The translations under genes and the position numbers were made by a program. Positions 7,242 through 42,347 of a DNA stretch of 64,000 nucleotides are shown in pieces. The stretch's first letter is position 1, and every line of letters starts with the position of its first letter. The notes beneath the pieces are model-generated. The model searched no databases and was not told where the DNA came from. It saw only the letters and a program-made list of their open reading frames with translations. Source of the DNA: Clostridiales bacterium (GTDB lineage: Bacteria; Bacillota; Desulfotomaculia; Desulfotomaculales; VENG01); contig JADQBQ010000005.1 in assembly GCA_016278505.1 (NCBI GenBank), positions 36,771 through 100,770 of the forward strand, read 5' to 3'.

Positions 7242-7628
7242 TTACCGTCCCATCATTCCATAGCCGTGACCGTTTCCTCTTTGCCCTCCGTCACTATATT
7301 GTGAATCTCCCATCATATAGTTGGAATCCATTTGATAATTATATTGCTGCATATAATTGAAATGATCTGACCATGTTTGGTTTTGATCGAAGTCCACATC
7401 AGTTTCTATTTCAGTTTCACCGGCACGATACTCTCCCCAATTGAACATATGGTTATCATATGCACCGGAATCTCCTCGTCCTACATACATGTCCTCGGAT
7501 GCCACGGCAGTATTTTGATGATTAGAAGACTGCATCATTGGTATCCCCCATGAAGCAAAAGCTGCCGGAGCCATAACACCAACAATTAACAGGGCACCTA
7601 AAGTCAAAGTTAATACTTTTCTTTTCAT
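7242..7628 (-). CDS. secreted Met/Gly/Tyr-rich small protein (family member 1)
   Basis: Signal peptide ending AFA-SW, a TWSDHFNYMQQYNYQM core and a GHGYGMMGR tail. Good SD (caggagg) precedes the ATG. Confidence 0.6.
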   Translation of the reverse strand: MKRKVLTLTLGALLIVGVMAPAAFASWGIPMMQSSNHQNTAVASEDMYVGRGDSGAYDNHMFNWGEYRAGETEIETDVDFDQNQTWSDHFNYMQQYNYQMDSNYMMGDSQYSDGGQRGNGHGYGMMGR

Positions 7629-7862: not shown

Positions 7863-8309
7863 CTACCCGCCGAAAACAATACCAACGGGAAGCGGTACTA
7901 AAAATGCATAGTTGAAGACACCGTAGAAAACTGCGGTTATCAGTGAAGCAATGACCACCGACTTTACAGGAGATACTTTTTTTGTGTTATCTAAAAGTTT
8001 AAAGAATACAGCCAGGAATAACAGGCTGGCCAAAGCAAAGCCGATGAGGATAATGGCACCAACGTAGGCTATTACACCTATTATCATCGGTATTAGCCTT
8101 TTTGCTTCTACGCCAGCGAAGGCCGGTTCAATGTTTTTCTTGATTAAGCTTTGAATTAACTGGATACCGCTAAAAAGTGCGAGAACAATTATGATTATTC
8201 TGGGGAAAAAGCCACCCATTTCACTGAGCCCGGACCCTTCACTCCAAAATATCCCACTGATGATCAAGATAATTGCTGCTGATATAATGTCTTTATTAAG
8301 CATTAGCAT
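7863..8309 (-). CDS. tctB: tripartite tricarboxylate transporter small membrane subunit (TctB), copy 1
   Basis: 148 aa, 4 TM, overlapping the tctA stop. Protein is identical to 15672..16118. Confidence 0.8.
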   Translation of the reverse strand: MLMLNKDIISAAIILIISGIFWSEGSGLSEMGGFFPRIIIIVLALFSGIQLIQSLIKKNIEPAFAGVEAKRLIPMIIGVIAYVGAIILIGFALASLLFLAVFFKLLDNTKKVSPVKSVVIASLITAVFYGVFNYAFLVPLPVGIVFGG

Positions 8310-10798
8310 CTGCCTCCTTGTCAGGAGTTTTGTTGCGTAGGTTGGAGATTAACGGCCAGCCGGCAGATACCAGACAAAGTAAAATCAATATGATAGAAAG
8401 TGGGCGTGTGAAGAATACTTCAAACATGCTGCCTGCTGATTTACCCATTAACATGGACTGTACCAGTCCATTTTCCGCTATGGGGCCTAGAATTAGGCCT
8501 AATACTATGGGCCCGGGGTGAAAACCGGCTTTTTTAGTTACATAACCAACTAAGCCGAATAGGATCATGATTATTACGTCTACAATGTTGTTTCTGATGG
8601 CATAGGAGCCGATTACTGTCATAAATACAACCATGGGGGCTAAGTAGCTGACGGGCAGGTTAATTAGTTTGGCTACATGGCGTGCCCCGTAGAAAGCCAT
8701 CACTCCCATGACTATATTGGCTACAATGAGTGAAAACAGGAAGGTGTAGGTTATGTCTCCATAGTTTATATATAGTTCCGGACCGGGTCTCATACCCTGG
8801 AGCATCAATGCACCCAGTAAAATGGCTGCCGGGGCCGCTCCCGGTATGCCCAGTGTCATTAACGGTACTAGTGAGCCGCCCACTTCTGCGTTGTTGGCTG
8901 CTTCTGAGGCTGCTACTCCGTCAATGTTGCCTTTGCCAAATTCTTTGGGCTTTTTGGACCAGCGGACTGCTTCGTTGTAAGATACCAGACCGGCAATGTT
9001 ACCGCCGGCACCGGGAACTATGCCTACAAAGGCTCCGATTACAGCTGATCTTAAAAGTAATATTGGTTTTTTAATTAAATCTGAGATTATTCCTTTAGCT
9101 ACACCTTTTTGTGGTTTGTAGTTGATGCTGTCATGTTGGCTAAATTTCTTTTCTATCATGCTTAAGACTTCGGGAATACAGAAAAATCCTATTAATACTA
9201 CAATCAATGATAAGCCGGCCTGCAGTTGGTAAAGACCAAAGGTGAAGCGCATTTCTCCGCCCAGGGGGGCTATACCGATTTGACTTAGTAAAAGACCTAT
9301 CCCACCACCTATCAAGCCTTTTAACATTGAACCGGAGGCTAAGGTGGCAATAATGGTCAGCCCGAAGATGGATAGCCAGAAGTATTCCGGCGGGCCGAAT
9401 TTTAATGCAATTGATGCTAGGGGCGGGGATAGCAGCAGGAGTACAACTGCTCCGATTACACCTCCCACAGCGGAGCTGAAGGCCGCGGTGACCAGGGCAT
9501 GCTCTGCTTTTCCTTTTTTTGTTAAAGGAAAGCCGTCAAAGGTGGTGGCAATGGCTGATGGTGTCCCCGGTGTGTTGACCAGGATGGCTGCGATACAGCC
9601 GCCATAAATAGCACCTACGTATATGCCGCCCAGGCCCATTAATGCCGGTACTGCGTCCATGGTGAAGGTAAAGGGTACTAAAAGGGCCATGGCCATGGTG
9701 GCGGTTAACCCGGGTAAGGCACCTACTATTATTCCAAAGCCTACGCCTATTGCCATGATTAAAAAGTTGGTTGGTTGAGCTATATTGCTTAGTGCTGCTA
9801 TAAAGTCGGCTGGCATGGCAAGTCTCCTCTCCATGATACATGGTGGTTCCCGGGAGACTTAGCCCGGGAACCTTTAATGTTATTTTTTATTTTGACTCTG
9901 CTTGTACTTTTTCTAATATTGCACTGTACTTGTCTTTCATTTCATTTATATATTGCTTCGATTCTTCTGCACCCATGGCCAGTGGCAGGAAGCCTTCTTC
10001 TTTCATTTGGGCGCGTATTTCTTCATCTTTGGCAATTTCTAAAAATGCTTTTTCTAGTTTTTCTATGATTCTCTTGTCTGTTTCCGGCGGTACTGCAACA
10101 CCGCGGTCAATACTGGCTGTCATGTCTATATCTTGTTCCATAAAGGTTTTTACATCCGGCAGGGGCTCAAATCTTTCTTTGGAACCAATGGCCAGTATCT
10201 TCATTTTGTCCTGGTGCTGTACCAGGTCGTTGGAGTTGGCCAACAGTGCATCTACGTGACCGCCTAAGTAGCTTTGCACTGATGGTGCTGCTCCCTGGGA
10301 CGGTACGTATTGGAATTCAGCACCGGTTTTGTCTTGCAGCTGCATTAAGGTGATGTGGTGTCCGGAATAGGTGCCGGAACCACCTACTGTGATTTGACCG
10401 GGCTTGGCCTTGCCTGCTTCAATGAATTCATCCAGTGTGTTATAGGGTGAGTCCGGCTGTACTGCCAGGCCGATGGGTGTTCCCTGAAATAGTGCCACCG
10501 GGTTTACCTGGTCTGTTTCGTAGCCGGCATTTTCTCTGGCCAGCGGCTGCAGTATAATGTGCGGTATATTCATCCCGGTCAGGTAATAGCCGTCGGGATC
10601 TTTCCTTACCAGCTCTGACCAGCCTACTGCTCCGCCACCACCGGGTTTGTTTTCGATTACTACATTGACTCCCAGCTTTTCTTCCAGTGGTTTTTGCTGC
10701 CTGCGGGCTTCTAGGTCTGACTGACCGCCTGGATTAAACGGCACTACATATTTTATTGTCTTGGTGGGGTAGTTAAATTCGTCTTTTCCTTCTTCCCC
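7882..10798. repeat. ~2.9 kb apparently base-identical segment, copy 1 (partner 15691..18607)
   Basis: Constant offset of 7809 bp. All sense and antisense ORFs in the track are identical between copies in several frames. Mismatches appear at 7863-7881 and from 10799 onward. Confidence 0.85.
8296..9834 (-). CDS. tctA: tripartite tricarboxylate transporter large permease (TctA), copy 1
   Basis: 512 aa polytopic protein with typical TctA motifs (GALPGLTATMAMALLVP, GIVPGAGG). Identical to 16105..17643. Confidence 0.9.
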   Translation of the reverse strand: MERRLAMPADFIAALSNIAQPTNFLIMAIGVGFGIIVGALPGLTATMAMALLVPFTFTMDAVPALMGLGGIYVGAIYGGCIAAILVNTPGTPSAIATTFDGFPLTKKGKAEHALVTAAFSSAVGGVIGAVVLLLLSPPLASIALKFGPPEYFWLSIFGLTIIATLASGSMLKGLIGGGIGLLLSQIGIAPLGGEMRFTFGLYQLQAGLSLIVVLIGFFCIPEVLSMIEKKFSQHDSINYKPQKGVAKGIISDLIKKPILLLRSAVIGAFVGIVPGAGGNIAGLVSYNEAVRWSKKPKEFGKGNIDGVAASEAANNAEVGGSLVPLMTLGIPGAAPAAILLGALMLQGMRPGPELYINYGDITYTFLFSLIVANIVMGVMAFYGARHVAKLINLPVSYLAPMVVFMTVIGSYAIRNNIVDVIIMILFGLVGYVTKKAGFHPGPIVLGLILGPIAENGLVQSMLMGKSAGSMFEVFFTRPLSIILILLCLVSAGWPLISNLRNKTPDKEADANA

Positions 10799-10876
10799 GT
10801 TCTGTGCGCATCCCGCAAAGACTCCGACTATTAACAGCAGTGATAGGATTGAGGCAAATACCTTAATTTTTTTCAT
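9887..10876 (-). CDS. tctC: tripartite tricarboxylate transporter substrate-binding lipoprotein (TctC/Bug family), copy 1
   Basis: 329 aa with lipobox FAGC and Bug-family character (VVPFNPGGQSD, NKPGGGG). The mature part is identical to copy 2. Confidence 0.9.
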   Translation of the reverse strand: MKKIKVFASILSLLLIVGVFAGCAQNGEEGKDEFNYPTKTIKYVVPFNPGGQSDLEARRQQKPLEEKLGVNVVIENKPGGGGAVGWSELVRKDPDGYYLTGMNIPHIILQPLARENAGYETDQVNPVALFQGTPIGLAVQPDSPYNTLDEFIEAGKAKPGQITVGGSGTYSGHHITLMQLQDKTGAEFQYVPSQGAAPSVQSYLGGHVDALLANSNDLVQHQDKMKILAIGSKERFEPLPDVKTFMEQDIDMTASIDRGVAVPPETDKRIIEKLEKAFLEIAKDEEIRAQMKEEGFLPLAMGAEESKQYINEMKDKYSAILEKVQAESK

Positions 10877-11056
10877 TCTCCTTGACCCTCCTGTAATTTA
10901 ATGCTAAAATTAAGTGTTGGTAAGACTTACTAAAATCGTACAAATAAAAAGTGATTATATATTGTTTTTTAATATAAGAATTTAAATATTTTACCAAAAT
11001 GGTTTATAGGTAACGGGAGAAGTTTCACCCTTCCCCCGTTACCTGTTTTTTTTCAA

Positions 11057-12217
11057 TTAAGCAGAACGATAAAGCTTTGTTAGTACATACTCAACGTGTC
11101 CTAATACTTCAGCCCTGGTCATACGCCCGTTAACCGTGCGCATCATCATTTCCATCAGGGCATCCCCGGCCTGTTCCAAATTCATTTCCATGCGCAACAT
11201 GCCGCTGAGATTAACATCTATATGTTCACCCATAGTTTCTGCTGTTAACGGATTAGCCGTTAACTTAATCACCGGAACCACAGGGTTACCTACAATATTG
11301 CCCTGACCGGTGGGGAAAAAGTGCAACACCGAACCGGCGGCACCCCACAATGTAACAGCCTCGGCGGCAGCAGAAGAGGTATCCATGTACCATAAGCCTT
11401 TTCCGGTGGGAGCTTCAGCAGGTTTCAGGACACCCACATACTTACATTTGCCGATTTTCTGGATATTACCCATAGCTTTTTCTTCAATGGTAGTTAGGCC
11501 ACCGGTAATATTCCCCTTTGTAGGCTGAGAACCGGAAAGGTCCACTCCCTGATCCAAAATAAATTGGTTATATTCACTCCAGGTTTTATAGAATTGTTCA
11601 CCGACTTCCGGAGTTGCACCCCGGCTCTTTACAATATCTTCCCCGCCGGTAATTTCTGAAGTTTCACCGAACATAACAGTGGCGTTCATTTCCACCAAGC
11701 GTTCCACCGCCTTACCGACGGTAGGATTGGAAGCCAGTCCGGAAGTGGTATCAGACTCTCCACACTTGACAGATACCACCAGTTCGTCCACGCTGCACTC
11801 TTCGCGCATCAGTTCAGTGGCCCATTGTACATATTCCATTGCTTTACGTGAAGCAGCTTCCACGGTTTTAAATTCCCCGCTCCGTTCAATGGCAAATCCG
11901 ATAACCGGCTTTCCGGTCTTGGCAATACCTTCAACAATGACATTTGTCCATTCAGGCTCAATGCCTATTACCACAACAGCTGCAATGTTTGGGTTACTAC
12001 CGGTTCCAATCAAGGTCCGGAAATATAAGTCCAGGTCCTCACCAAACTGCAGTCTTCCATAACCATGAGGAATAACCATGGTTCCCTTAACATTGTTGGC
12101 AACCTTTTCACTGGCTGAGTTTGACAAATCATCCAAAGGCAATATCAAAACGTTATTTCTAATCCCTACTCGTCCGTTTTCCCGCCTGTAACCCCAAAAC
12201 TTAGGAACATTCATCAT
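11057..12217 (-). CDS. UxaA-family lyase/dehydratase large subunit (SuyB-like)
   Basis: 386 aa. The N-terminus [19 protein letters not shown] and GESDTTSGL are typical of the UxaA C-terminal domain. It abuts the SAF-domain ORF. Confidence 0.8.
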
Positions 12218-12496
12218 TTACCACCTCGCAGTTTTCAAATTATGAGTGTGTACATGTTCACCTACGGCAATATCGTGAGTCGTAACACCAATGGGGAAAC
12301 CGTATTTTATAATCTGGTTACCCTTGGTTACATCCACCAGAGCAATTTTATGACCCAATAGAATATCGCTATTGGAAACTACTTCAATTTCGTTTCCTTC
12401 TTCCATAAAATACCCTTTCACCGTTTCTCCGGCCTTAATATCGGTAACGGCTACCCCAACAGAATCATTTTTGTCGTGGACAAGAAACTTAACCAT
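12218..12496 (-). CDS. SAF-domain small subunit of split UxaA-family enzyme (SuyA-like)
   Basis: 92 aa. [14 protein letters not shown]...GHKIAL... matches the SAF/UxaA N-terminal pattern. Its stop abuts the large-subunit start. Confidence 0.7.
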   Translation of the reverse strand: MVKFLVHDKNDSVGVAVTDIKAGETVKGYFMEEGNEIEVVSNSDILLGHKIALVDVTKGNQIIKYGFPIGVTTHDIAVGEHVHTHNLKTARW

Positions 12497-12601
12497 TATA
12501 ATCCTCCTCTCTAAAATATAAGTAGTTTATGTTTTATAATTTACCCTCACGGGGCAAAATGAAATAACCAGTTAGTTAACAAAATCTTTTACAACTTTTT
12601 T

Positions 12602-13654
12602 CTATAACGGGGCTACGCTGAATTGGAGGGCCAGTTCATTCAGCTCATCCAATACCGGCTGGGAAACAGGAATTCCATCCCGTTTGCGCTCAAGAAACTT
12701 ATTGGTGCGGCGCTCCCCGGGAATGAAGATTTCTTCTACTCCTGTGGCCTTGGGTGAACCCTTAACTTCATTGACCATATGATCCAGGCGACTAATAAAC
12801 ATGTCCAGAGGCATCAATTTATTTATATCCAAGGTTATAAAAAAATGACCGATATCCACTGGCTCGGTACTGTCATCGTAAATCCAACCCACCCTGGGTC
12901 CATAAGCCGACCCGCTCAAGATACCGGACATAATTTCTACAGCGAGCGCCAAGGCATAACCTTTCGGGCCGGCCATGGGGAGAACAGCCCCTTCCAGGGC
13001 TGCCTGGGCATCTGTAGTGGCCCTGCCTTCAGCATCTATGGCCCAGCCCTCCGGGATAGACCTTCCTTCCTTGGCGGCCGTAATAATGTTGCCCCGGGCC
13101 ACCGTGCTAGAGGACATATCAATTACTACCGGCTGATTTCTACCAGGAAAAGCGAAGGCAATAGGATTTGTACCAAAATAGGCCTTTTTTCCACCCCATG
13201 GGGTGATACCCGCAGGAGTATTGGTAAATGCCATACCCAACATACCGCTGGAAGCAGCCATTTTGCAATAATATGAAGATGCGCCGTAATGGTTGCTGTG
13301 TTTAGCAGCTACCGCTCCCATACCTGTTTCCCCGGCCAGCTCAATTGCCACCTGCATAGAGCGCACACCCACCAGCTGTCCCAACCCGTTATCGCCATCT
13401 ACTGTGGCCAGGCCGGGAGCGGTACGCTCAACCTTCATGTCCGCCTGAGAGTTAATACGACCATTTTGTATCCTGGACAAGTATATTGGTAGACGACTAA
13501 TACCGTGGGTGTCCAGACCTTCCAGACTGGTGTCAACCAGCACATCAGCCACTACAGCAGCATCTTCTTCCGGTACACCGGCACCCTGAATAAGATTCTT
13601 ACAAAATTTAACAAGCTTATCAGCTGAATATTGGGGCATTAAGGTCTCCTCCAA
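12602..13654 (-). CDS. Ldh_2-family (malate/L-lactate/sulfolactate-type) NAD(P)H dehydrogenase
   Basis: 350 aa with Ldh_2 character (GLDTHGISRLPIY, HSNHYGASSYY, GTNPIAFAFP). Confidence 0.85.
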   Translation of the reverse strand: MEETLMPQYSADKLVKFCKNLIQGAGVPEEDAAVVADVLVDTSLEGLDTHGISRLPIYLSRIQNGRINSQADMKVERTAPGLATVDGDNGLGQLVGVRSMQVAIELAGETGMGAVAAKHSNHYGASSYYCKMAASSGMLGMAFTNTPAGITPWGGKKAYFGTNPIAFAFPGRNQPVVIDMSSSTVARGNIITAAKEGRSIPEGWAIDAEGRATTDAQAALEGAVLPMAGPKGYALALAVEIMSGILSGSAYGPRVGWIYDDSTEPVDIGHFFITLDINKLMPLDMFISRLDHMVNEVKGSPKATGVEEIFIPGERRTNKFLERKRDGIPVSQPVLDELNELALQFSVAPL

Positions 13655-13675
13655 ATTTTAATAATCTATTTTTCT

Positions 13676-14617
13676 TTAGCTCACGCAACAATGTGAAGCT
13701 TGTCCAGCCAGCACTTTGGAAACCTCTCGCGCCACCAGTACCGAGGTGCGAACCTGTGCTTCTTCGGTCAGGCCGGCAATATGCGGGCTGAGAATTATAT
13801 TATCCAATTCTTTAAGGGGTGATTCCCCAGGGGGCTCCTGGGCTAATACATCCAGAGCCGCACCGGCAATTTGCTTGGATTTTAGCGCGTTAAACAGAGC
13901 ATCTTCATTTATAATGCCACCGCGCGAAGTATTTATGATACAGGCAGTTGATTTCATAATAGACAGGCTGTCTTTATTTATAATATTCCGCGTTTTTTTA
14001 TTCAGTGGTACATGCAAACTTATAAAGTCGGAATCGGAAAGTACCTGCTCCAAATCGGTAAGGCACACACCAAATTCCGTGCAGGCCACCTCGTAAGGAG
14101 GCAAAAATGGATCAAAACCTATTACATTCATACCAAACGCCCTTGTCCGGGCCGCCAGACGGCTACCTATTTCTCCAACCCCCACTAGACCCAGCGTTTT
14201 ACCATATAACTCGGTCAATGTGAATGTTCGGCGGTTCCAATTACCTGATTTTACATCACTGGTTGCCCAGGCCAGCTGCCTCGAAAAAGTAAACATTGCC
14301 GCAAAAACATATTCAACCACCGAAATTGCATTGGCGTTGCGGGCCACCACCACGTCAACATTTGAATCCTTACAGACACTTAGATCGATATTATCCAGAC
14401 CCACACCAAGACGTCCCAACACTTTTAATTTTGGTGCCGCCATGAGGAACTCTTTGTCAACCTTGGTCTGGTTCCTTACTATGACTGCGTCACTATCCGC
14501 TATTTCCAGCAGTAATTTATCACTCTGCCAGAGGTTCGGGTCATAAACAACTTGGCCCAATTCCCTTAGAATTTCCAATCCTTCTTCCCATATTAATTCC
14601 GTTACAACAATTTTCAT
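13676..14617 (-). CDS. D-isomer-specific 2-hydroxyacid dehydrogenase (PGDH-like)
   Basis: 313 aa with the GLVGVGEIGS Rossmann motif and the catalytic region SLHVPL...NTSRGG...SPHIAG. Confidence 0.85.
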   Translation of the reverse strand: MKIVVTELIWEEGLEILRELGQVVYDPNLWQSDKLLLEIADSDAVIVRNQTKVDKEFLMAAPKLKVLGRLGVGLDNIDLSVCKDSNVDVVVARNANAISVVEYVFAAMFTFSRQLAWATSDVKSGNWNRRTFTLTELYGKTLGLVGVGEIGSRLAARTRAFGMNVIGFDPFLPPYEVACTEFGVCLTDLEQVLSDSDFISLHVPLNKKTRNIINKDSLSIMKSTACIINTSRGGIINEDALFNALKSKQIAGAALDVLAQEPPGESPLKELDNIILSPHIAGLTEEAQVRTSVLVAREVSKVLAGQASHCCVS

Positions 14618-14686
14618 ACTATCGCTCCTATAATTATGTAAATTTAAACCAGTTGTAGTTATATTAGGTCACTTTTCATAGGTATG

Positions 14687-14697
14687 TGGTAGTACCA
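14687..14697. promoter_or_regulatory. candidate GntR/FadR-type operator TGGTA-G-TACCA
   Basis: Perfect 5-1-5 palindrome in the divergent region between the catabolic operon and the GntR gene. It fits the generic t.GT.n.AC.a GntR operator shape. Confidence 0.35.
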
Positions 14698-14815
14698 TTG
14701 GTTACGGTTATTGTATGTATTAAACATGATTATGTCAACAGTTTTTATAAATTTATTTCGCGAGTGAAAAATATTATACAATAACTATTGTTTTATTAAG
14801 ACACTACTGGTATAT

Positions 14816-14826
14816 TGGTATTACCT
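14816..14826. promoter_or_regulatory. second candidate GntR-type operator tGGTA-T-TACCt
   Basis: GGTAtTACC palindrome about 50 nt upstream of the GntR start. Confidence 0.35.
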
Positions 14827-14873
14827 CATACGAGTAACCACAAAAACTCCCACTTATCGAAGTGGGATAAAAT

Positions 14874-15599
14874 ATGGAGAGGAAGAATAAGATGTTTGAG
14901 AAAATTGGACGCAATGCCAGTCTAAAAAATCAAGTGGCAGAATACATAAAGAACCTCATCAAGAACGGCAAGCTTAAACCTGGTGACCGCTTGCCAACCG
15001 AAAGAGAAATGGCTGAAAAATTCGGAGTTAGCCGCACCGTGATCAGGGATGCGGTTAAAACTTTATCCGGTGTGGGCATCTTAAAGGTAAAGCACGGCCT
15101 TGGTATTTTTGTGGCTAAAGTAGATGTGGATATTATTGCGCGCCAGTTATCCAGTTTATTATTTAACGAAAGTGATACCGTGGATAACTTATTTGAGGTG
15201 CGAATGGAATTGGAGACTGTCGCAGCAGGCTGGGCTGCCGAACGCTGTACTGAAGAAGCCCGGGCTAAAATTTCGCAATTTACAAAGGAAAGTCAAGCTT
15301 TATTAAATTCGAACGGTGAAAGTGATAGTTTCCAGCAATATGATCAGGAGTTCCACTTATTGGTTTCGGAAATGACCGGCAACCCGGTTGTAGTTCGTTT
15401 AATGCGCAGCATGCTTGATCTTTTGGAGGAAGCCCGCTCCCACACATTACATATTCCCGGGAGGTTTGATTTATCGGTGCAGGAACATATAAAGGTTTTA
15501 GAGGCAATATATAAGGGTAACACTGATCAGGCTAAAAGCGCTATGCATGATCACTTGTTAAGTGTACTAAATTCTATTAAGGAAAGCAGAGATCACTAG
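14874..15599 (+). CDS. GntR-family transcriptional regulator, FadR subfamily (FCD domain)
   Basis: N-terminal wHTH (LPTEREMAEKFGVSRTVIRDAVKTL) followed by a helical FCD-like C-terminal domain. Confidence 0.85.
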   Translation: MERKNKMFEKIGRNASLKNQVAEYIKNLIKNGKLKPGDRLPTEREMAEKFGVSRTVIRDAVKTLSGVGILKVKHGLGIFVAKVDVDIIARQLSSLLFNESDTVDNLFEVRMELETVAAGWAAERCTEEARAKISQFTKESQALLNSNGESDSFQQYDQEFHLLVSEMTGNPVVVRLMRSMLDLLEEARSHTLHIPGRFDLSVQEHIKVLEAIYKGNTDQAKSAMHDHLLSVLNSIKESRDH

Positions 15600-15671: not shown

Positions 15672-16118
15672 TTAGCCGCCAAAAACAATGCCAACGGGAA
15701 GCGGTACTAAAAATGCATAGTTGAAGACACCGTAGAAAACTGCGGTTATCAGTGAAGCAATGACCACCGACTTTACAGGAGATACTTTTTTTGTGTTATC
15801 TAAAAGTTTAAAGAATACAGCCAGGAATAACAGGCTGGCCAAAGCAAAGCCGATGAGGATAATGGCACCAACGTAGGCTATTACACCTATTATCATCGGT
15901 ATTAGCCTTTTTGCTTCTACGCCAGCGAAGGCCGGTTCAATGTTTTTCTTGATTAAGCTTTGAATTAACTGGATACCGCTAAAAAGTGCGAGAACAATTA
16001 TGATTATTCTGGGGAAAAAGCCACCCATTTCACTGAGCCCGGACCCTTCACTCCAAAATATCCCACTGATGATCAAGATAATTGCTGCTGATATAATGTC
16101 TTTATTAAGCATTAGCAT
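15672..16118 (-). CDS. tctB: TctB, copy 2
   Basis: Protein identical to copy 1. Confidence 0.8.
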   Translation of the reverse strand: MLMLNKDIISAAIILIISGIFWSEGSGLSEMGGFFPRIIIIVLALFSGIQLIQSLIKKNIEPAFAGVEAKRLIPMIIGVIAYVGAIILIGFALASLLFLAVFFKLLDNTKKVSPVKSVVIASLITAVFYGVFNYAFLVPLPVGIVFGG

Positions 16119-18607
16119 CTGCCTCCTTGTCAGGAGTTTTGTTGCGTAGGTTGGAGATTAACGGCCAGCCGGCAGATACCAGACAAAGTAAAATCAATAT
16201 GATAGAAAGTGGGCGTGTGAAGAATACTTCAAACATGCTGCCTGCTGATTTACCCATTAACATGGACTGTACCAGTCCATTTTCCGCTATGGGGCCTAGA
16301 ATTAGGCCTAATACTATGGGCCCGGGGTGAAAACCGGCTTTTTTAGTTACATAACCAACTAAGCCGAATAGGATCATGATTATTACGTCTACAATGTTGT
16401 TTCTGATGGCATAGGAGCCGATTACTGTCATAAATACAACCATGGGGGCTAAGTAGCTGACGGGCAGGTTAATTAGTTTGGCTACATGGCGTGCCCCGTA
16501 GAAAGCCATCACTCCCATGACTATATTGGCTACAATGAGTGAAAACAGGAAGGTGTAGGTTATGTCTCCATAGTTTATATATAGTTCCGGACCGGGTCTC
16601 ATACCCTGGAGCATCAATGCACCCAGTAAAATGGCTGCCGGGGCCGCTCCCGGTATGCCCAGTGTCATTAACGGTACTAGTGAGCCGCCCACTTCTGCGT
16701 TGTTGGCTGCTTCTGAGGCTGCTACTCCGTCAATGTTGCCTTTGCCAAATTCTTTGGGCTTTTTGGACCAGCGGACTGCTTCGTTGTAAGATACCAGACC
16801 GGCAATGTTACCGCCGGCACCGGGAACTATGCCTACAAAGGCTCCGATTACAGCTGATCTTAAAAGTAATATTGGTTTTTTAATTAAATCTGAGATTATT
16901 CCTTTAGCTACACCTTTTTGTGGTTTGTAGTTGATGCTGTCATGTTGGCTAAATTTCTTTTCTATCATGCTTAAGACTTCGGGAATACAGAAAAATCCTA
17001 TTAATACTACAATCAATGATAAGCCGGCCTGCAGTTGGTAAAGACCAAAGGTGAAGCGCATTTCTCCGCCCAGGGGGGCTATACCGATTTGACTTAGTAA
17101 AAGACCTATCCCACCACCTATCAAGCCTTTTAACATTGAACCGGAGGCTAAGGTGGCAATAATGGTCAGCCCGAAGATGGATAGCCAGAAGTATTCCGGC
17201 GGGCCGAATTTTAATGCAATTGATGCTAGGGGCGGGGATAGCAGCAGGAGTACAACTGCTCCGATTACACCTCCCACAGCGGAGCTGAAGGCCGCGGTGA
17301 CCAGGGCATGCTCTGCTTTTCCTTTTTTTGTTAAAGGAAAGCCGTCAAAGGTGGTGGCAATGGCTGATGGTGTCCCCGGTGTGTTGACCAGGATGGCTGC
17401 GATACAGCCGCCATAAATAGCACCTACGTATATGCCGCCCAGGCCCATTAATGCCGGTACTGCGTCCATGGTGAAGGTAAAGGGTACTAAAAGGGCCATG
17501 GCCATGGTGGCGGTTAACCCGGGTAAGGCACCTACTATTATTCCAAAGCCTACGCCTATTGCCATGATTAAAAAGTTGGTTGGTTGAGCTATATTGCTTA
17601 GTGCTGCTATAAAGTCGGCTGGCATGGCAAGTCTCCTCTCCATGATACATGGTGGTTCCCGGGAGACTTAGCCCGGGAACCTTTAATGTTATTTTTTATT
17701 TTGACTCTGCTTGTACTTTTTCTAATATTGCACTGTACTTGTCTTTCATTTCATTTATATATTGCTTCGATTCTTCTGCACCCATGGCCAGTGGCAGGAA
17801 GCCTTCTTCTTTCATTTGGGCGCGTATTTCTTCATCTTTGGCAATTTCTAAAAATGCTTTTTCTAGTTTTTCTATGATTCTCTTGTCTGTTTCCGGCGGT
17901 ACTGCAACACCGCGGTCAATACTGGCTGTCATGTCTATATCTTGTTCCATAAAGGTTTTTACATCCGGCAGGGGCTCAAATCTTTCTTTGGAACCAATGG
18001 CCAGTATCTTCATTTTGTCCTGGTGCTGTACCAGGTCGTTGGAGTTGGCCAACAGTGCATCTACGTGACCGCCTAAGTAGCTTTGCACTGATGGTGCTGC
18101 TCCCTGGGACGGTACGTATTGGAATTCAGCACCGGTTTTGTCTTGCAGCTGCATTAAGGTGATGTGGTGTCCGGAATAGGTGCCGGAACCACCTACTGTG
18201 ATTTGACCGGGCTTGGCCTTGCCTGCTTCAATGAATTCATCCAGTGTGTTATAGGGTGAGTCCGGCTGTACTGCCAGGCCGATGGGTGTTCCCTGAAATA
18301 GTGCCACCGGGTTTACCTGGTCTGTTTCGTAGCCGGCATTTTCTCTGGCCAGCGGCTGCAGTATAATGTGCGGTATATTCATCCCGGTCAGGTAATAGCC
18401 GTCGGGATCTTTCCTTACCAGCTCTGACCAGCCTACTGCTCCGCCACCACCGGGTTTGTTTTCGATTACTACATTGACTCCCAGCTTTTCTTCCAGTGGT
18501 TTTTGCTGCCTGCGGGCTTCTAGGTCTGACTGACCGCCTGGATTAAACGGCACTACATATTTTATTGTCTTGGTGGGGTAGTTAAATTCGTCTTTTCCTT
18601 CTTCCCC
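15691..18607. repeat. ~2.9 kb apparently base-identical segment, copy 2
   Basis: See the partner at 7882..10798. Confidence 0.85.
16105..17643 (-). CDS. tctA: TctA, copy 2
   Basis: Protein identical to copy 1. Confidence 0.9.
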   Translation of the reverse strand: MERRLAMPADFIAALSNIAQPTNFLIMAIGVGFGIIVGALPGLTATMAMALLVPFTFTMDAVPALMGLGGIYVGAIYGGCIAAILVNTPGTPSAIATTFDGFPLTKKGKAEHALVTAAFSSAVGGVIGAVVLLLLSPPLASIALKFGPPEYFWLSIFGLTIIATLASGSMLKGLIGGGIGLLLSQIGIAPLGGEMRFTFGLYQLQAGLSLIVVLIGFFCIPEVLSMIEKKFSQHDSINYKPQKGVAKGIISDLIKKPILLLRSAVIGAFVGIVPGAGGNIAGLVSYNEAVRWSKKPKEFGKGNIDGVAASEAANNAEVGGSLVPLMTLGIPGAAPAAILLGALMLQGMRPGPELYINYGDITYTFLFSLIVANIVMGVMAFYGARHVAKLINLPVSYLAPMVVFMTVIGSYAIRNNIVDVIIMILFGLVGYVTKKAGFHPGPIVLGLILGPIAENGLVQSMLMGKSAGSMFEVFFTRPLSIILILLCLVSAGWPLISNLRNKTPDKEADANA

Positions 18608-18679
18608 ATTTTGTGCGCATCCCACTACAACTGATATTGCCAATATTAATACTAAAACCAATGGGCAAAATCGTTTCAA
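17696..18679 (-). CDS. tctC: TctC/Bug-family substrate-binding lipoprotein, copy 2
   Basis: 327 aa. It differs from copy 1 only in the signal peptide (lipobox VVGC). Confidence 0.9.
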   Translation of the reverse strand: MKRFCPLVLVLILAISVVVGCAQNGEEGKDEFNYPTKTIKYVVPFNPGGQSDLEARRQQKPLEEKLGVNVVIENKPGGGGAVGWSELVRKDPDGYYLTGMNIPHIILQPLARENAGYETDQVNPVALFQGTPIGLAVQPDSPYNTLDEFIEAGKAKPGQITVGGSGTYSGHHITLMQLQDKTGAEFQYVPSQGAAPSVQSYLGGHVDALLANSNDLVQHQDKMKILAIGSKERFEPLPDVKTFMEQDIDMTASIDRGVAVPPETDKRIIEKLEKAFLEIAKDEEIRAQMKEEGFLPLAMGAEESKQYINEMKDKYSAILEKVQAESK

Positions 18680-18819
18680 GGATACCCCCCCTAGTGTATA
18701 AATCTAAGATACTTAAAGTGTTCTATTTCACTAGTCATCAATATTAACTCATATACATAGATGGTTGTCTACCTGAACTTAATTCCATGAAAAATACTTC
18801 ATTTGTTTACATTGAATTC

Positions 18820-19989
18820 CTAAGCGCTGGGATACAATTTAGTCATGATGAACTCTTTATGCCCAAGAATTTCCGCACTCATCATACGACCGTTACATGC
18901 CCTTAACATCATATCCATCAATTTATCTCCCGCGCCCTCTAAATCCATTTCACGGCGCAATAAACCGGTAAGATCTACATCGATATGTTCGGACATGGTG
19001 GCGACTGTAATTGGGTTGGCACACAATTTAACCACCGGGATTACCGGATTACCTACAATATTTCCTTGCCCGGTGGGGAATAAATGCACCACCGCTCCTC
19101 CTGCGGCACACAGTGTAACCATTTCTGCCGCGGCAGAAGATGAATTCATAAAATGCAGCCCCGTGCCTTTGGGTGCCTCTGCCTCTTTTAGGGCACTTTT
19201 TACCATCGCTTTTCTGCCCATTTTTTGGATATTGCCTAACGCTTTTTCTTCAATAGTAGTTAAACCACCGGCAATATTACCCTGTGTTGGCTGAGATCCT
19301 AAAAGGTCAACTCCTTGACCCTCAATCAGATTCATGTAATCAGTATGCATTTTCAAAAATGCTTCTTTTACTTCCGGAGTAGCACATCTTTCAGCAACAA
19401 TGTCTTCTCCACCTGTTATCTCTGAGGTTTCACCAAAGATTGCCGTACCACCCCATTCCACTACCCGGTCAACCACTACACCTACAGTGGGATTTGACGC
19501 TAAGCCGGAAGTTGTATCCGACTCACCACATTTAACACTAACAGTGAGCTCCGAACCCCTGCATTCCACACGCTTTAGTTCGGTAGCATACTGCACGAAT
19601 TCATGAGCCTTGCGTGCAGCTGTTTCAATTGTTTTATACTGGCCGTTACGCTCAATGGCAAAACCAGCTACCGGCTTCCCGGTCTTAGCTATTCCATCCA
19701 CTATTTTGTTTGTCCAATTAGGCTCAATACCAATAACTACACAGGCAGCAATGTTTGGATTGCACCCGGTTCCAATCATGGTACGGAAAAATAGGTCTAA
19801 ATCTTCACCAAACTGCAAACGCCCATATGCGTGGGGCAAAGGTAATGTGCCTTGCACTATGCTGGCAACACCCTCAACAGCAGCGTTTGAAATGTCATCT
19901 AAAGCTAAAATTGCCACATGGTTCCTTACTCCTACACGCCCATTTTCACGCTTGTAACCGTAAAATATTGGTTCAGTCATTTTTACCAC
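18820..19989 (-). CDS. UxaA-family large subunit, diverged paralog of 11057..12217
   Basis: 389 aa, colinear with the other copy but with many substitutions ([19 protein letters not shown]...). Confidence 0.8.
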
Positions 19990-20267
19990 CTCAATGTCCT
20001 AAGATTGTGGGTATGCATATGCTCTCCTTTTTTGACAGCTTGGCTGGCTTTGCCGATTACCACGTTATATTTCAATACTTTGGCACCTTGATCAAGATCA
20101 TAAAGAGCAATCTTATGACCTAAAGGGATGTCATTTTGCGACTTTACGGTAACCGTTGAATTATCTTCCATCACCCAGCCACTAACATCTTCACCGGCTT
20201 TGATGTCTGTAACGGCCACCCCCACGTGATCTTGTTTATCGTGGACAAAAAAGTTCGTTTGCGCCAT
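19983..20267 (-). CDS. SAF-domain small subunit, diverged paralog of 12218..12496
   Basis: 94 aa with the pattern [13 protein letters not shown]...GHKIAL. It overlaps the large-subunit start by 7 nt. Confidence 0.7.
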
Positions 20268-20451: not shown

Positions 20452-20751
20452 ATGAAAACAAAGCAAAAGGATAAACAAACCCTTTTGAAAAAACCCCAAC
20501 AGATAAAACAAGAGATGGAGGCCGGTGCAGAATTAAGTCCTGCCCCGGTTCAGGATGCCGTTCAAAGCATGAAAACAAAACCCCGTGTGCAAAAAGCGAA
20601 ACCGGAAGGTCCTACACAGAATTTTGGCGGCGGCTGGGGAGTTGACGGGGCATTCTACCACGTTGATAAAGAAATATTACAACAAACTTCGGAAACTGGA
20701 CCTGCCTCGCTGGAAACTGACCTAATTACCAATCAAGTAAAAGATAAATGA
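20452..20751 (+). CDS. hypothetical Lys/Gln-rich small protein
   Basis: 99 aa with a strong SD (aaggagg) and a terminator directly downstream. No family recognised. Confidence 0.4.
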   Translation: MKTKQKDKQTLLKKPQQIKQEMEAGAELSPAPVQDAVQSMKTKPRVQKAKPEGPTQNFGGGWGVDGAFYHVDKEILQQTSETGPASLETDLITNQVKDK

Positions 20752-27176: not shown

Positions 27177-28662
27177 GTTTTGTGTAAATGGCTTCTTACC
27201 TTAAGTAATGGTTAAGCTATAAATGGCTCTTACCCGCAGGAGGGTACGGCTCTGCTGGAGAGCAACCGGAGCGCCTGACGGGGTTCTGCCGGGGGTAAGT
27301 AGGGGTACAAAAACAGTGCCCCCTTATCCTTTTAAATATACTTACCCTTGAGGAGAACAAGGCGTTAAACTCTTGGGGCTTCGCCCCAATAAAGGGAATT
27401 ATATAGCCAGTTCTGCTTTAAGCCTATCGGCAAAGTATATCCCAATCTGTGAAGCACATTCTTTCCAATCTCTTATAGGTATAGTCCACTTTTTAGCTAC
27501 TTCAACAGTTGCCAGATAGATTATTTTCCGAAGGGCATCATCAGTTGGGTATGTTGTCTTAGTCTTAGTTACTTTCCGCAACTGACGGTGGTAACCTTCA
27601 ATGATGTTGGTCGTATATATTGTCTTACGCATGGCATAAGGGTACTTAAAATATGCAGTTAATTCAACCCAGTTTGTCTCCCAGGATCGGATGATTATTG
27701 GGTGCTTCTTACCCCATTTTTCCTTAAACATTTCAAAGGCAAACTCGGCCTCTTCTATGGTTAACGCCTGGTATACTTGCTTAAGATCAGCTATTAATTC
27801 TTTACGTTCTTTGTGAGGGACATATTTTAAAGAGTTTCTGATTTGATGAACAATGCATAGCTGGATCTCTGTATTGGGAAATACGCTGTTAATGGCCTCA
27901 GAGAACCCGGAGAGCCCGTCTTTACAGGCAATCAGAATATCCTCAACACCTCTGTTCTTAAGGTCATTGCATACACCAAGCCAGAAACTGGCGCTTTCAT
28001 TCTCACCAATCCAGATGCCTAATATGTCCTTATGGCCGTCCATATTTACAGCTAGCACGCTATAGGCAGCTTTGTTTATGATCCGGTTTTCCTTGCGTAC
28101 CTTGAAGTGTATGGCATCTAAAAAAATGATTGGATAAACACGGTCTAGCGGCCGTGACTGCCACTCAGAAATCATGGGCATGATCTTATCGGTCACTTTA
28201 CTGACCATGGTGGGGGATACATCAATACCGTAGATGTTCCGCATGTGGTCTTCGATATCACGAGTGGACATGCCTTTGGCATACATGGCTATGATCTGGT
28301 CTTCTAGCTGGTTTGAAGTAGTCTCATACTTCTTGATAATCTGAGGCTCAAACTCTGCATTACGGTCTCGAGGTAGCCTCAGCTCTGTTTTACCAAGCCT
28401 GGTTTGGATAGTTTTCTGGCTATAGCCATTACGGCTGTTACCGGTATTGTTGCCTTCAACATTGTGTTTCTGATAGCCAAGATGGTTTTCTATTTCACCC
28501 TCGAATATTTCTTGCAGGGTGTCCTTAAACAAGCCTTTGAGCATTTCATGTACGTCATCAACTGTGCGGCATTCTTGTGCCAGTTCCTTGATTGTTTTGT
28601 CCTTCACGTTTTGCATAAATGGTCAGCTCCTTTATTGGTAGTTATAACCATTTACACAAAAC
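27177..28662 (-). mobile_element. IS256-family insertion sequence (~1.49 kb)
   Basis: Terminal inverted repeats gttttgtgtaaatgg (27177-27191) and ccatttacacaaaac (28648-28662) flank the transposase gene. Confidence 0.8.
27399..28616 (-). CDS. IS256-family (mutator-type) transposase
   Basis: 405 aa with the typical IS256 motifs PRDR...FEP.I..K, YPIIFLDAIHFKVR and C.VHQIRNS. Confidence 0.9.
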   Translation of the reverse strand: MQNVKDKTIKELAQECRTVDDVHEMLKGLFKDTLQEIFEGEIENHLGYQKHNVEGNNTGNSRNGYSQKTIQTRLGKTELRLPRDRNAEFEPQIIKKYETTSNQLEDQIIAMYAKGMSTRDIEDHMRNIYGIDVSPTMVSKVTDKIMPMISEWQSRPLDRVYPIIFLDAIHFKVRKENRIINKAAYSVLAVNMDGHKDILGIWIGENESASFWLGVCNDLKNRGVEDILIACKDGLSGFSEAINSVFPNTEIQLCIVHQIRNSLKYVPHKERKELIADLKQVYQALTIEEAEFAFEMFKEKWGKKHPIIIRSWETNWVELTAYFKYPYAMRKTIYTTNIIEGYHRQLRKVTKTKTTYPTDDALRKIIYLATVEVAKKWTIPIRDWKECASQIGIYFADRLKAELAI

Positions 28663-33803: not shown

Positions 33804-34663
33804 GGTGTCAGGGGGACGGGGTTATTGACACTCCTATGCTTTTAAAACAATACCCCTATTGATACCTGTAATCCTTTCTATTTGTCTAATTGATAAGCTA
33901 TATTCTTCTTTTAGTTCCTTCAAATATGTATTTCTTGTTAATCTATCAAGTTTATGTAAATGAGGTGTATCCTTTACTTTACATACTGTTTTAATTATAT
34001 TTCTTGCTTCTTCATCCATTATTCGATGCTTTTCTTCTATATCTAAACATTCATTATAATTCACTTTACTATTATATTGTATAAAACTCTTTGTTGCCTG
34101 TTCTTTATCACTGTTAAATAGTTCAAGAGCGAAATCTACATTAACTATTTTTGTTTTATTTACATATTCATTAAAGCTGCTCCATTTATATTGATCAATA
34201 CTTTTTACTAATCCGGCTTTAATTGGGTTTTGGTGTATATATCTCTGAACAATTAGAAAATATGTATCATCCTCTACCGGTTCACTTTTAAATCTGTCTT
34301 GAAATAGGTTTCCTACTCTTTGATATTTACAATTGTACCAATAAACATAGCTGCCGCATATCCTACACATCACTTGTTCCAGCGGTTCCTTATCGATTTT
34401 TAATAGCAGATGCACATGATTTCCCATCAAGCAGTATGCATAAATTTCATATTCGCTTTTTTCTTTATAACGCTGTATTGTGTGAATAAATTTTACACAA
34501 TCTTCTTCGTCTTCAAAAATGGTCTGCCGGTTTATTCCTCTCATCATTATATGGTATATCCCGCTTTCACTTTTCTCCCTAGCCTTTCTTGGCATAAATA
34601 CACCTCCAACCTATGCTACCTTAGACTGGAGATGGTTGTCAATAACCCCGTCCCCTTGACACC
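33804..34663 (-). mobile_element. RAYT / IS200-like Y1-transposase unit bounded by 27-bp inverted repeats
   Basis: ggtgtcagggggacggggttattgaca (33804-33830) is the reverse complement of tgtcaataaccccgtccccttgacacc (34637-34663) with 1 mismatch. Confidence 0.6.
33834..34595 (-). CDS. REP-associated tyrosine transposase-like (IS200/IS605 Y1 family)
   Basis: 253 aa with YHIMMRGINRQTIF...YCLMGNHVHLLL...YIHQNP, the HUH and Y1 signature regions. Confidence 0.8.
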   Translation of the reverse strand: MPRKAREKSESGIYHIMMRGINRQTIFEDEEDCVKFIHTIQRYKEKSEYEIYAYCLMGNHVHLLLKIDKEPLEQVMCRICGSYVYWYNCKYQRVGNLFQDRFKSEPVEDDTYFLIVQRYIHQNPIKAGLVKSIDQYKWSSFNEYVNKTKIVNVDFALELFNSDKEQATKSFIQYNSKVNYNECLDIEEKHRIMDEEARNIIKTVCKVKDTPHLHKLDRLTRNTYLKELKEEYSLSIRQIERITGINRGIVLKA

Positions 34664-38019: not shown

Positions 38020-39201
38020 TTAATTTTCAATCGGCTTAACCCTTGTGTTTTCCTTTAAATCCAGGCTCCCGTCGCGGATAATAACATCCCCTGCTGCCAG
38101 GCCTTCAGTTATTTCAATGTTCTCCCTATCTCCTATACCAGTTTTCACCGGCCTGTGTTCAACCCGGTTATCTATTACCACCATCACTTCCTTACTGCCA
38201 CCTTGCAGGGTATGCACCGCTTCCCTGGGGATTACCGGTACATCCTTGTGGGTTAAGGTTTCAATGGCCACCTTTACATCATAGCCGGGCTTAAGATTGG
38301 CCGGGTCGGCCAAGGTGACAATGACGGGCACCCGTCTCTGGATAACCCCCAATGCTGATTGTTTTTCCACGGCCAGGGGATATATTTCCCCCACTTCGCC
38401 GTATAAGACCTTTGGTCCAAGAACCGGGGCGGTGATTTTTACCCTCTGACCCAGTTTTACCTCACCCAGGTCGTCGCTGAGAATATCCGCCTTGATTTCA
38501 AGTTTGTCCTGCACTGCAACACTGGCCAGTACTGTACCCGGGGTCACCACCTGTTCCTGCTTGGCCGGCAAACTAAGGACTATACCGTCCACGGGGCTTT
38601 GCAGCGTCAGTTGCCGCTCTTTGCGGTTAAGGTTCTGCAGCGACCGGTTCAAGCCCGCCTGCTGTGCTCGGGTACTCTCTAAAAGGGATTTCTGCTCCTG
38701 CAGGCTTTGCTCCAGGGTTTGCACCTTTAGTTCGGCTGCTTCAAATTCCACTGTGGAGATAGCCCCGGATTCATACAAATCCTGAAACCGCGCCAGGTTT
38801 TCGCCCGCATTTTTCAATTCCAATTCTATGCGCTGCACAGCCGCTTGAGCGGCAGCAATAGAAGCTGCGGTTTGCGACAATTGAGAGCGAGTATCTTCAA
38901 CTTGCAATGAAAGATCCAGGTTTTCCATTACAACCATAGTTTGCCCTTTGTTAACCTGTTGACCTCTGTCAACGGGTACCTGCACAACTTTGGCGTTCTG
39001 GGGGGCGTGCAAGTCGTAACTGGTGGCGGGCTGAACATAACCGGTATCTTCAACGGACCGGATTATATCCCCGGTCCGAACCTGCACCGTTTCTGCCCCG
39101 GTTCCACCGGTTAAAACAGTGATTGCGGTTATTAACGCCAGTATCACCACGATGCCCACCAGTATGAACAATTTTTTTCTTTTCTTAGCAACCGGCTTCA
39201 T
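38020..39201 (-). CDS. HlyD/MacA-family periplasmic adaptor (membrane fusion protein)
   Basis: 393 aa with an N-terminal TM, long coiled-coil segments and beta-barrel-like C-terminal regions. Confidence 0.85.
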   Translation of the reverse strand: MKPVAKKRKKLFILVGIVVILALITAITVLTGGTGAETVQVRTGDIIRSVEDTGYVQPATSYDLHAPQNAKVVQVPVDRGQQVNKGQTMVVMENLDLSLQVEDTRSQLSQTAASIAAAQAAVQRIELELKNAGENLARFQDLYESGAISTVEFEAAELKVQTLEQSLQEQKSLLESTRAQQAGLNRSLQNLNRKERQLTLQSPVDGIVLSLPAKQEQVVTPGTVLASVAVQDKLEIKADILSDDLGEVKLGQRVKITAPVLGPKVLYGEVGEIYPLAVEKQSALGVIQRRVPVIVTLADPANLKPGYDVKVAIETLTHKDVPVIPREAVHTLQGGSKEVMVVIDNRVEHRPVKTGIGDRENIEITEGLAAGDVIIRDGSLDLKENTRVKPIEN

Positions 39202-39215
39202 ATAAAGACCTCCTG

Positions 39216-41630: not shown

Positions 41631-42334
41631 TCAATCCTTTCCGGTGGCAGGGGAGAGGCATTCTCCCTGATCTCGGCTACAGTCCCATCTCTCATACGCA
41701 CCACCCGGTGGGCCATTTCACCGATGGGGGTATTGTGGGTAACAATGACCACGGTACTGCCCTGTTCCCGGTTTATTTTCACCAGCAAGGCCAGGATGAG
41801 TTTTCCGGTCTGGTAATCCAGAGCACCGGTGGGCTCGTCACAAAGTAACAGCCGGGGATTTTTCACCGTTGCCCGGGCGATGGATACCCGCTGCTGTTCA
41901 CCGCCGCTCATCTGGGAGGGGAAATGGTCCATCCGGTCGGCCAGACCCACATCCCTCAGTACGTCGGTTACAGCCAAAGGCTCATCCACCAGGTCGGCGG
42001 CCAGTTCCACATTCTCTTTGGCCGTCAAGTCAGGTATCAGGTTATAAAACTGAAATACAAAACCAATTTTATTTCTTCTGTAACTGGTTAACTGATCATC
42101 ATTGGCCTGTCCAAGATTACTGTCTCCAAAATACACCTCTCCTTCGGTGGGCAGATCCATTCCCCCCATGATATTAAGCAGGGTGCTCTTCCCGGATCCG
42201 CTGGGACCCAGGATCACCAGTATCTCACCCTGGTACACGTCCAGTGTAGTTTCCTTAAGGGCATTAACCGTTACTTCTCCCATATGGTAAGTTCTGGTTA
42301 GGCGGTTTAAACACATCAATTTATTTTTGGTCAT
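41624..42334 (-). CDS. ABC transporter ATP-binding protein (MacB/LolD type)
   Basis: Walker [10 protein letters not shown], signature MSGGEQQR and Walker B LLLCDEPT. The start is taken at the ATG at 42334. Confidence 0.9.
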
Positions 42335-42347
42335 ATCCGCACGCCTT

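Follow-up and report, generated by a model that had tools for sequence, protein, structure and literature searches.

Two neighbouring gene clusters occupy part of the 64-kb stretch of DNA analysed here (the window), which comes from contig JADQBQ010000005.1 of Clostridiales bacterium assembly GCA_016278505.1. Cluster I (operon I) encodes two dehydrogenases of different families, the small and large subunits of a split UxaA-family enzyme, and a tripartite tricarboxylate transporter (TTT); a regulator gene of the GntR/FCD type is divergently oriented. Cluster II (15672-20267) was described in an earlier reading of this DNA (the first-pass annotation) as lyase and transporter only, and this is what it holds: a SAF subunit, a large subunit, and TctC, TctA and TctB. 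Open reading frames (ORFs) and profile scans with Pfam and NCBIfam also bear out the genes, sizes and domains listed earlier for both clusters, all their Pfam scores lying well over the curated cut-offs (Table 1). In both clusters the genes for the small and large subunits are adjacent or overlapping, giving the two-polypeptide architecture of SuyAB-type enzymes, in which a SAF-type polypeptide of about 8-10 kDa is encoded directly upstream of one of about 42 kDa. An independent Joint Genome Institute (JGI) assembly (L003) has the identical layout at 99.99% sequence identity; the JGI call for the Ldh_2 gene uses a possible alternative start, the ATG at 13639 (345 amino acids, aa). An Rfam scan of the window returned no matches.

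Together, the two clusters quite likely form a catabolic system for 3-sulfolactate, comprising import, racemisation and desulfonation. The first-pass annotation had suggested this reading, and it is supported by the phylogeny of the large subunits, by their loss of conserved cysteines, and by the match to the parts list in the literature. That list agrees with published descriptions: SlcC, PF00389/PF02826; ComC, PF02615; SuyB, PF04295/PF20629; and SlcHFG, a TTT-type importer.

Table 1. Genes and candidate regulatory sites of the two clusters (window coordinates)
Feature	Position	Strand	Details
SlcC-like D-2-hydroxyacid dehydrogenase	13676-14617	-	313 aa; PF00389/PF02826; first gene of operon I; candidate (S)-sulfolactate dehydrogenase, EC 1.1.1.310
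ComC-like Ldh_2 dehydrogenase	12602-13654	-	PF02615, 428 bits; candidate (R)-sulfolactate dehydrogenase / sulfopyruvate reductase, EC 1.1.1.337/338
SuyA-I, small subunit	12218-12496	-	92 aa; SAF domain
SuyB-I, large catalytic subunit (GD_AH)	11057-12217	-	386 aa; PF04295/PF20629; with SuyA-I, predicted (2R)-sulfolactate sulfo-lyase, EC 4.4.1.24
TctC-I, lipoprotein solute-binding protein (SlcH-like)	9887-10876	-	PF03401; lipobox FAGC
TctA-I, large membrane subunit (SlcF-like)	8296-9834	-	PF01970, 487 bits
TctB-I, small membrane subunit (SlcG-like)	7863-8309	-	PF07331; last gene of operon I
GntR/FCD regulator (FadR subfamily)	14874-15599	+	PF00392 + PF07729; divergent from operon I
SuyA-II, small subunit	19983-20267	-	94 aa; SAF-type sequence
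SuyB-II, large subunit	18820-19989	-	389 aa; start at 19980 (386 aa) in other assemblies
TctC-II	17696-18679	-	duplicated importer, cluster II
TctA-II	16105-17643	-	duplicated importer, cluster II
TctB-II	15672-16118	-	duplicated importer, cluster II
Promoter-like site, operon I	14710-14738	-	TTGACA-17-TACAAT; 11/12 consensus positions, best of the region
Candidate operator O1	14675-14697	-	perfect palindrome TGGTACTACCA, a few bases downstream of the promoter
Candidate operator O2	14814-14828	.	ATTGGTATTACCTCA, upstream of gntR

A tblastn search of 72,556 plasmids with large subunit I gave a bimodal outcome: 13 plasmid records matched at 60-65% identity, and no other record reached 39%. Two loci of the high group serve as anchors. 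One, in Cupriavidus pinatubonensis, reads hpsN, hpsO, a major facilitator superfamily gene, hpsP, small subunit and large subunit; this hps-suyAB locus is the cluster for 2,3-dihydroxypropane-1-sulfonate (DHPS) and sulfolactate described for strain JMP134. The other, in Paracoccus versutus (gntR, small subunit, large subunit, sulfate exporter), has the suyR-suyAB-suyZ arrangement of Paracoccus pantotrophus. Both window large subunits share 61-64% identity with SuyB of these two anchors, which themselves are just 64% identical, and 66-68% with SuyB of Halomonas sediminis, whose locus has the order suyAB, tctCAB, 2-hydroxyacid dehydrogenase, Ldh_2. Overall, identity to anchored SuyB is 63-66% for SuyB-I and 61-68% for SuyB-II; the other UxaA-family proteins compared reach at most 41% (39% for SuyB-I), and Escherichia coli UxaA and GarD only 25-30% to either window protein.

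The first-pass annotation had proposed a phylogeny of the large subunit as a check, with clustering among sugar-acid dehydratases as the outcome that would speak against sulfolactate. A neighbour-joining tree was built from the window proteins, the anchors, homologues from Desulfotomaculia, Moorella, Desulfovibrio, Pelagibacter, Rhodococcus and Nitrospirota, four other split UxaA-family enzymes, and E. coli UxaA and GarD; support was taken from bipartition counts over 200 bootstraps. Both window proteins group with SuyB of the anchored loci, and not with UxaA, GarD or the other split enzymes. The SuyB clade that holds them stands apart from the UxaA and GarD dehydratases in 200 of 200 bootstraps.

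Individual residues give the same picture. Watanabe et al. noted four cysteines that are conserved across the superfamily except in sulfolactate sulfo-lyase (PMC6336799). In every sequence of the SuyB clade, both window proteins included, the positions of GarD C144, C179 and C215 are occupied by leucine or isoleucine, by arginine, and by a gap, respectively; C288 is kept. In the alignment, all 31 invariant residues specific to the SuyB clade are present in both window large subunits. Over 21 clade members, drawn from many phyla, 134 alignment columns are invariant, and both paralogues keep all of them. The large subunits are orthologous to SuyB. The substrate, which the first-pass annotation had left open, is narrowed considerably by the SuyB phylogeny and the cysteine loss, and sulfolactate itself remains an inferred substrate.

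In public records, these proteins and hundreds of homologues are annotated as 'D-galactarate dehydratase', 'altronate dehydratase' or 'UxaA family hydrolase', and the name sulfolactate sulfo-lyase is given solely in KEGG-based JGI annotations. A search of the PDB found no SuyB structure, the only structural homologue being GarD (6u7l).

Among the small subunits, SuyA-I is 40-43% identical to C. pinatubonensis and P. versutus SuyA, with which it shares a C-terminal GEHxHxHNxKTxRW motif, and SuyA-II is 42-46% identical to anchored SuyA. Both lyase pairs recur in relatives, where each paralogue groups with its own orthologues in 200 of 200 bootstraps; by this evidence the two SuyAB pairs are old paralogues, conserved in relatives. 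SuyB-II orthologues (83-89% identical) adjoin a dehydrogenase pair there. Neofunctionalisation of SuyB-II was considered and finds no support, the protein having just four lineage-specific changes at conserved SuyB positions, all of them conservative.

The two pairs may nonetheless be non-redundant: one could have another stereo- or substrate specificity (for example, for a second C3 sulfonate taken up through the same TctC), or could be a constitutive scavenging module that escapes GntR. We consider this unlikely. If it were true, the very recent duplication that left a perfect copy of the importer behind the second lyase would count as adaptive, having made the module autonomous.

Divergent from suyA-II lies a 99-aa ORF (20452-20751, plus strand) rich in lysine, glutamine and proline, which is 67% conserved at the same position in a relative (L094). 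A role as regulator is not evident for this low-complexity sequence, which matches no family.

The two dehydrogenases belong to the SlcC and ComC families. For the D-2-hydroxyacid dehydrogenase, the best NCBIfam and PDB matches are SerA-type enzymes, and SlcC has been assigned in the literature to the SerA clade of 2-hydroxyacid dehydrogenases or a position beside it. The window enzyme shares 44% identity with the syntenic SuyAB-linked homologue of H. sediminis, a proxy for Chromohalobacter salexigens SlcC, and 66-75% with SuyAB-linked homologues in Desulfofundulus and relatives. Among its best plasmid matches (3,043 records matched), at least eight have one of the 13 SuyB-clade genes no more than 15 kb away. 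The Arg232/Glu261/His279 triad, the GxGxxG motif, Arg48-Asn49 and R69 are invariant among SuyAB-linked 2-hydroxyacid dehydrogenases. The enzyme thus has the fold expected of SlcC: the two Pfam domains, SerA-like, with an intact triad and an anion-binding arginine.

The second enzyme is a member of the Ldh_2 family, to which the first-pass annotation had assigned ComC; C. salexigens ComC is indeed described as PF02615. Its best NCBIfam match is the sulfolactate dehydrogenase model NF040650, and it is 40% identical over its full length to Methanocaldococcus jannaschii ComC (PDB 2x06). Identity to the SuyAB-linked Halomonas Ldh_2 is 37%. Compared with SuyAB-linked ComC more widely, it is 33-39% identical to proteobacterial proteins and 67-74% to Firmicutes orthologues. 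This is a family member related to archaeal ComC; neither an equivalog-level score nor specific clustering with SuyAB-linked proteins was found.

The importer genes tctC, tctA and tctB are encoded together with suyAB and the slcC-like and comC-like genes, as expected of SlcHFG. Among 865 plasmid records, the best-scoring match to TctC is the TctC encoded directly downstream of SuyB in Paracoccus seriniphilus. TctC and TctA are 38% and 51% identical, respectively, to their SuyAB-linked Halomonas counterparts. TctCAB is a putative sulfolactate importer; in the literature, the role of SlcHFG as importer is putative even in C. salexigens and Taurinivorans muris. A TRAP (tripartite ATP-independent periplasmic) transporter is encoded 6 kb from operon I (159-2021; DctQ and DctM, with DctP just outside the window, at 8366-9421 of L098), with no catabolic genes beside it. 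In T. muris, sulfonates are taken up by TRAP systems, but nothing ties the window TRAP transporter to the predicted sulfolactate cluster.

The first-pass annotation did not remark that the two importers are copies of each other. A perfect direct repeat of 2,917 bp (7882-10798 and 15691-18607, zero mismatches) runs from the codon of the TctC lipobox cysteine to 18 nt past the tctB stop. TctA and TctB are 100% identical between the clusters, and TctC is identical from the lipobox cysteine onward. By contrast, identity between the lyases of the two clusters is just 69% for the large subunit and 54% for the small one. In short-read data, a Logan contig (L004) stops some 30 nt within the edge of the repeat, which is how a genuine repeat should behave, and the JGI contig shows both copies. 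Related genomes (L092 and L093) carry a single transporter, so the duplication (or gene conversion) is recent, and the second copy is new to this strain lineage. In each copy, the 52-nt gap between tctC and tctA contains a strong GC-rich hairpin, GGTTCCCGGG-N8-CCCGGGAACC (9845-9872 and 17654-17681); this could be an mRNA-stabilising or attenuating element that boosts the binding protein over the membrane subunits.

The same genes recur together elsewhere. Examination of 80 SuyB loci from species-representative genomes found both dehydrogenase families within 10 kb in 13, from many phyla. In L016 the genes follow the order of the window, and the cultured sulfate reducer Desulfofundulus australicus DSM 11792 (L026) has the full set, including the GntR/FCD regulator. 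Other arrangements occur: NIR_SIR, a 148-aa ORF, suyA2B2, 2-hydroxyacid dehydrogenase, Ldh_2, suyA1B1, gntR (on the opposite strand) and tctCAB in L092/L093; and 2-hydroxyacid dehydrogenase, Ldh_2, suyA2B2 and tctC in L094.

A related assemblage was found on plasmid 3 of Variovorax sp. PBL-E5 (L008, 2735-8289). Its split UxaA-family enzyme resembles that of the window in architecture and in its neighbours, a GntR regulator, a hydroxyacid dehydrogenase, TctC and an Ldh-family oxidoreductase, but is only 37-41% identical to SuyB. This clade is sister to the SuyB clade (187 of 200 bootstraps) and lacks the same cysteines. The Variovorax enzyme could itself be a lyase, as yet uncharacterised, that acts on a related substrate.

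Together, these features suggest a route in which we infer both the substrate and the direction of each dehydrogenase. Extracellular sulfolactate would be bound by the lipoprotein TctC and imported via TctAB. The SlcC-like dehydrogenase would oxidise (S)-sulfolactate to 3-sulfopyruvate, and the ComC-like enzyme would reduce 3-sulfopyruvate to (R)-sulfolactate, the two dehydrogenases acting as a racemase. Finally, heteromeric, Fe(II)-dependent SuyAB, present as two paralogous pairs, would cleave (R)-sulfolactate to pyruvate and sulfite.

Features of the slcC-gntR intergenic region, 256 bp in length, offer a view of regulation. The sequence GGTAnTACC occurs twice in the 64 kb, both times in this region, which fits operators of the FadR subfamily. 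The 23-nt O1 stretch, TGGTACTACCACATACCTATGAA, is identical in the relative L092, where it stands in front of tctC in a similar layout, following a TTGACA/TAAAAT promoter. A near-identical 15-mer to O2, ATTGGTAATACCTCA, is located upstream of gntR in D. australicus. The GntR/FCD orthologues in the corresponding clusters are 68% (L092) and 35% (Desulfofundulus) identical to the window protein. Operon I is probably repressed by the divergent regulator at the predicted TGGTA-N-TACCA operators. No FadR-type operator turned up in a search of the sequence upstream of cluster II and of the internal gaps between genes; lacking a TGGTA-N-TACCA site, operon II is probably regulated separately. A terminator-like hairpin (7843-7828) lies just downstream of tctB-I. 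Just 3' of operon I is a 128-aa ORF (7242-7628, minus strand) with a signal peptide and a tail rich in glycine, methionine, tyrosine, asparagine and glutamine, and no family match. Far from the clusters, three TGGTnnnACCA-like sites, one of them perfect, fall within 100 bp (55625-55722); these may mark another GntR/FadR-type regulatory region, unrelated to the predicted sulfolactate cluster.

Markers in the window point to the host. The glutaminyl-tRNA synthetase (GlnRS) is 77-80% identical to those of Desulfoscipio, Desulfallas, Desulfotruncus and Desulfotomaculum, and genes for SspH, SpoIIR and an RsgI/SigI pair are present in the window and the flank to its left. Judged by these genes, the host is an uncultured, endospore-forming, Desulfotomaculia-like member of the Bacillota. 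Dissimilatory reduction (respiration) of the sulfite by such a host is plausible.

Elsewhere in the window, a MacB-type efflux operon (38020-42397; HlyD-like adaptor, FtsX/MacB permease and ATP-binding cassette ATPase) has 50-53% G+C against about 40% around it, which suggests horizontal acquisition. Transposases of the Mutator family and of the IS200-like Y1 type are located at 27399-28616 and 33834-34595, with several ORFs that match no family between them.

The pathway itself is already established, in C. salexigens, T. muris, Bilophila wadsworthia and Desulfovibrio sp. DF1. The C. salexigens system (SlcHFG, SlcC, ComC and SuyAB; Denger & Cook 2010) matches the window in all seven functional parts and in their Pfam families, and the Halomonas locus, with its C. 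salexigens-like layout within the Halomonadaceae, is homologous to the window gene for gene (SuyA at 42-51% identity, the other proteins as given above). The window differs in gene order; in an FCD rather than a UTRA effector domain; in the lack of a sulfite/sulfate exporter; and in its second SuyAB pair and duplicated importer. Moreover, C. salexigens is an aerobic halophile, whereas the window host would be an anaerobic spore-former.

T. muris LT0009 and B. wadsworthia are anaerobes with the same gene set in which sulfite is the electron acceptor; T. muris induces slcHFG-slcC-comC and suyAB on sulfolactate. These are Desulfovibrionaceae, and their lyase genes form a cluster of their own that includes hpsN and a TRAP transporter, whereas the lyase of the window shares an operon with the dehydrogenases and the TTT importer.

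The sulfate reducer Desulfovibrio sp. DF1 likewise has two SuyAB paralogues, and the recombinant enzyme is Fe2+-dependent and converts sulfolactate to pyruvate and sulfite (Burrichter et al. 2018). The DF1 paralogues are 87.6% identical, occupy separate loci, and are fed by DHPS via DhpA and SlaB; those of the window are more divergent, adjacent, and accompanied by the racemase pair and TTT importer. Adjacent divergent lyase pairs and a duplicated importer are minor variations on this known pathway. UxaA and GarD (E. coli UxaA; GarD, PDB 6u7l) share superfamily and domain order with SuyAB, their SAF domain corresponding to SuyA and their second and C-terminal domains to SuyB. The window enzymes differ in being split, where the dehydratases are single chains of about 500 aa, in the low identity, in the three lost cysteines and 31 gained SuyB-specific residues, and in the predicted reaction: C-S cleavage rather than dehydration.

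Could the clusters instead degrade a sugar acid, with the split enzymes acting as altronate-, galactarate- or pentonate-type dehydratases? The Pfam domains are named for galactarate/altronate dehydratase, the public label is 'D-galactarate dehydratase', and there is a match to TIGR03248, albeit a weak one (150 bits against a cut-off of 731). The enzymes nonetheless fail to resemble sugar-acid dehydratases: they are split; they lack three of the four conserved cysteines; their identity to E. coli UxaA and GarD is far below that to SuyB; and the bootstraps separate them completely. Moreover, the cluster contains no 2-keto-3-deoxygluconate kinase, aldolase or isomerase genes, and its dehydrogenases are SerA-like and ComC-like. 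Phylogeny has already largely refuted this alternative, which we regard as very improbable.

A nearer alternative keeps the chemistry and changes the substrate: another β-substituted 2-hydroxy acid (another C3 sulfonate entering through sulfopyruvate, or a phospho- or carboxy-analogue, for instance a derivative of tartrate or malate) might be degraded, or only one lyase pair might act on sulfolactate. Just a handful of SuyB-clade members have been assayed, and several further points count against the sulfolactate reading. The anchors are syntenic or close relatives, rather than the assayed proteins of P. pantotrophus NKNCYSA, C. salexigens and Desulfovibrio DF1. The Ldh_2 enzyme falls short of the NF040650 cut-off (314 bits against 500), and its nearest plasmid homologues (about 42% identical) are not linked to SuyAB. 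The Variovorax sister clade shares the parts list, so gene context alone is not diagnostic and the assignment rests on phylogeny. Several relatives likewise retain both paralogues next to each other, and there is no evident need for two isofunctional lyases. Against this alternative stand the invariant SuyB columns, all kept by both paralogues, with only the four conservative changes in type II; the linkage of type II in relatives, likewise, to dehydrogenases and TTT; and the identity of the mature TctC proteins, which implies that both clusters import the same ligand. This alternative is quite unlikely, and sulfolactate remains the preferred substrate.

The fate of the sulfite is less secure. 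Sulfolactate could be degraded as proposed, for carbon, sulfur or fermentation, with the sulfite assimilated, detoxified or exported and not respired. The 64-kb window and 10 kb to its left were searched for a sulfite reductase (dsr, asr or other) or a sulfite exporter (TauE/SuyZ), and none was found, which also weighs against the proposed route as a respiratory one. Furthermore, some Desulfotomaculia are syntrophs that do not reduce sulfate, such as Pelotomaculum (one of the GlnRS matches), and aerobes use SuyAB purely for carbon. The great majority of the closest SuyB-I and SuyB-II homologues nevertheless belong to sulfate or sulfite reducers (Desulfurispora, Desulfoscipio, Desulforudis, Desulforamulus, Desulfomonile and Desulfovibrio); a relative has a siroheme-type NIR_SIR protein adjoining suyA-II; and the cluster lacks an exporter gene, unlike those of aerobes. 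Use of sulfolactate without sulfite respiration is somewhat unlikely.

The genes of that relative deserve a separate description. A 240-aa siroheme-type protein with NIR_SIR_ferr and NIR_SIR domains and a cysteine-rich 148-aa ORF lie directly upstream of suyA-II (L092, 8308-9541; L093, 200-1435). Neither has a homologue in the window.

These results reassign to sulfolactate desulfonation a set of genes that are publicly labelled galactarate dehydratase or UxaA family hydrolase. Sulfolactate is an intermediate in the turnover of sulfoquinovose, DHPS and cysteate. The analysis also yields a candidate operator for the GntR/FCD regulator and a cultured organism with the same gene set, D. australicus DSM 11792. 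Peatland Acidobacteria metagenome-assembled genomes with suyAB-slcC-comC have already been described, and Burrichter et al. (2018) listed SuyB candidates in Desulfotomaculum, Desulfitobacterium and Desulfosporosinus. The presence of a full import-racemase-lyase module in spore-forming, Desulfotomaculia-like bacteria would add Gram-positive anaerobes of sediment and subsurface habitats to the organisms that produce sulfite and sulfide from organosulfonates, an extension that was earlier only suggested, from those SuyB matches.

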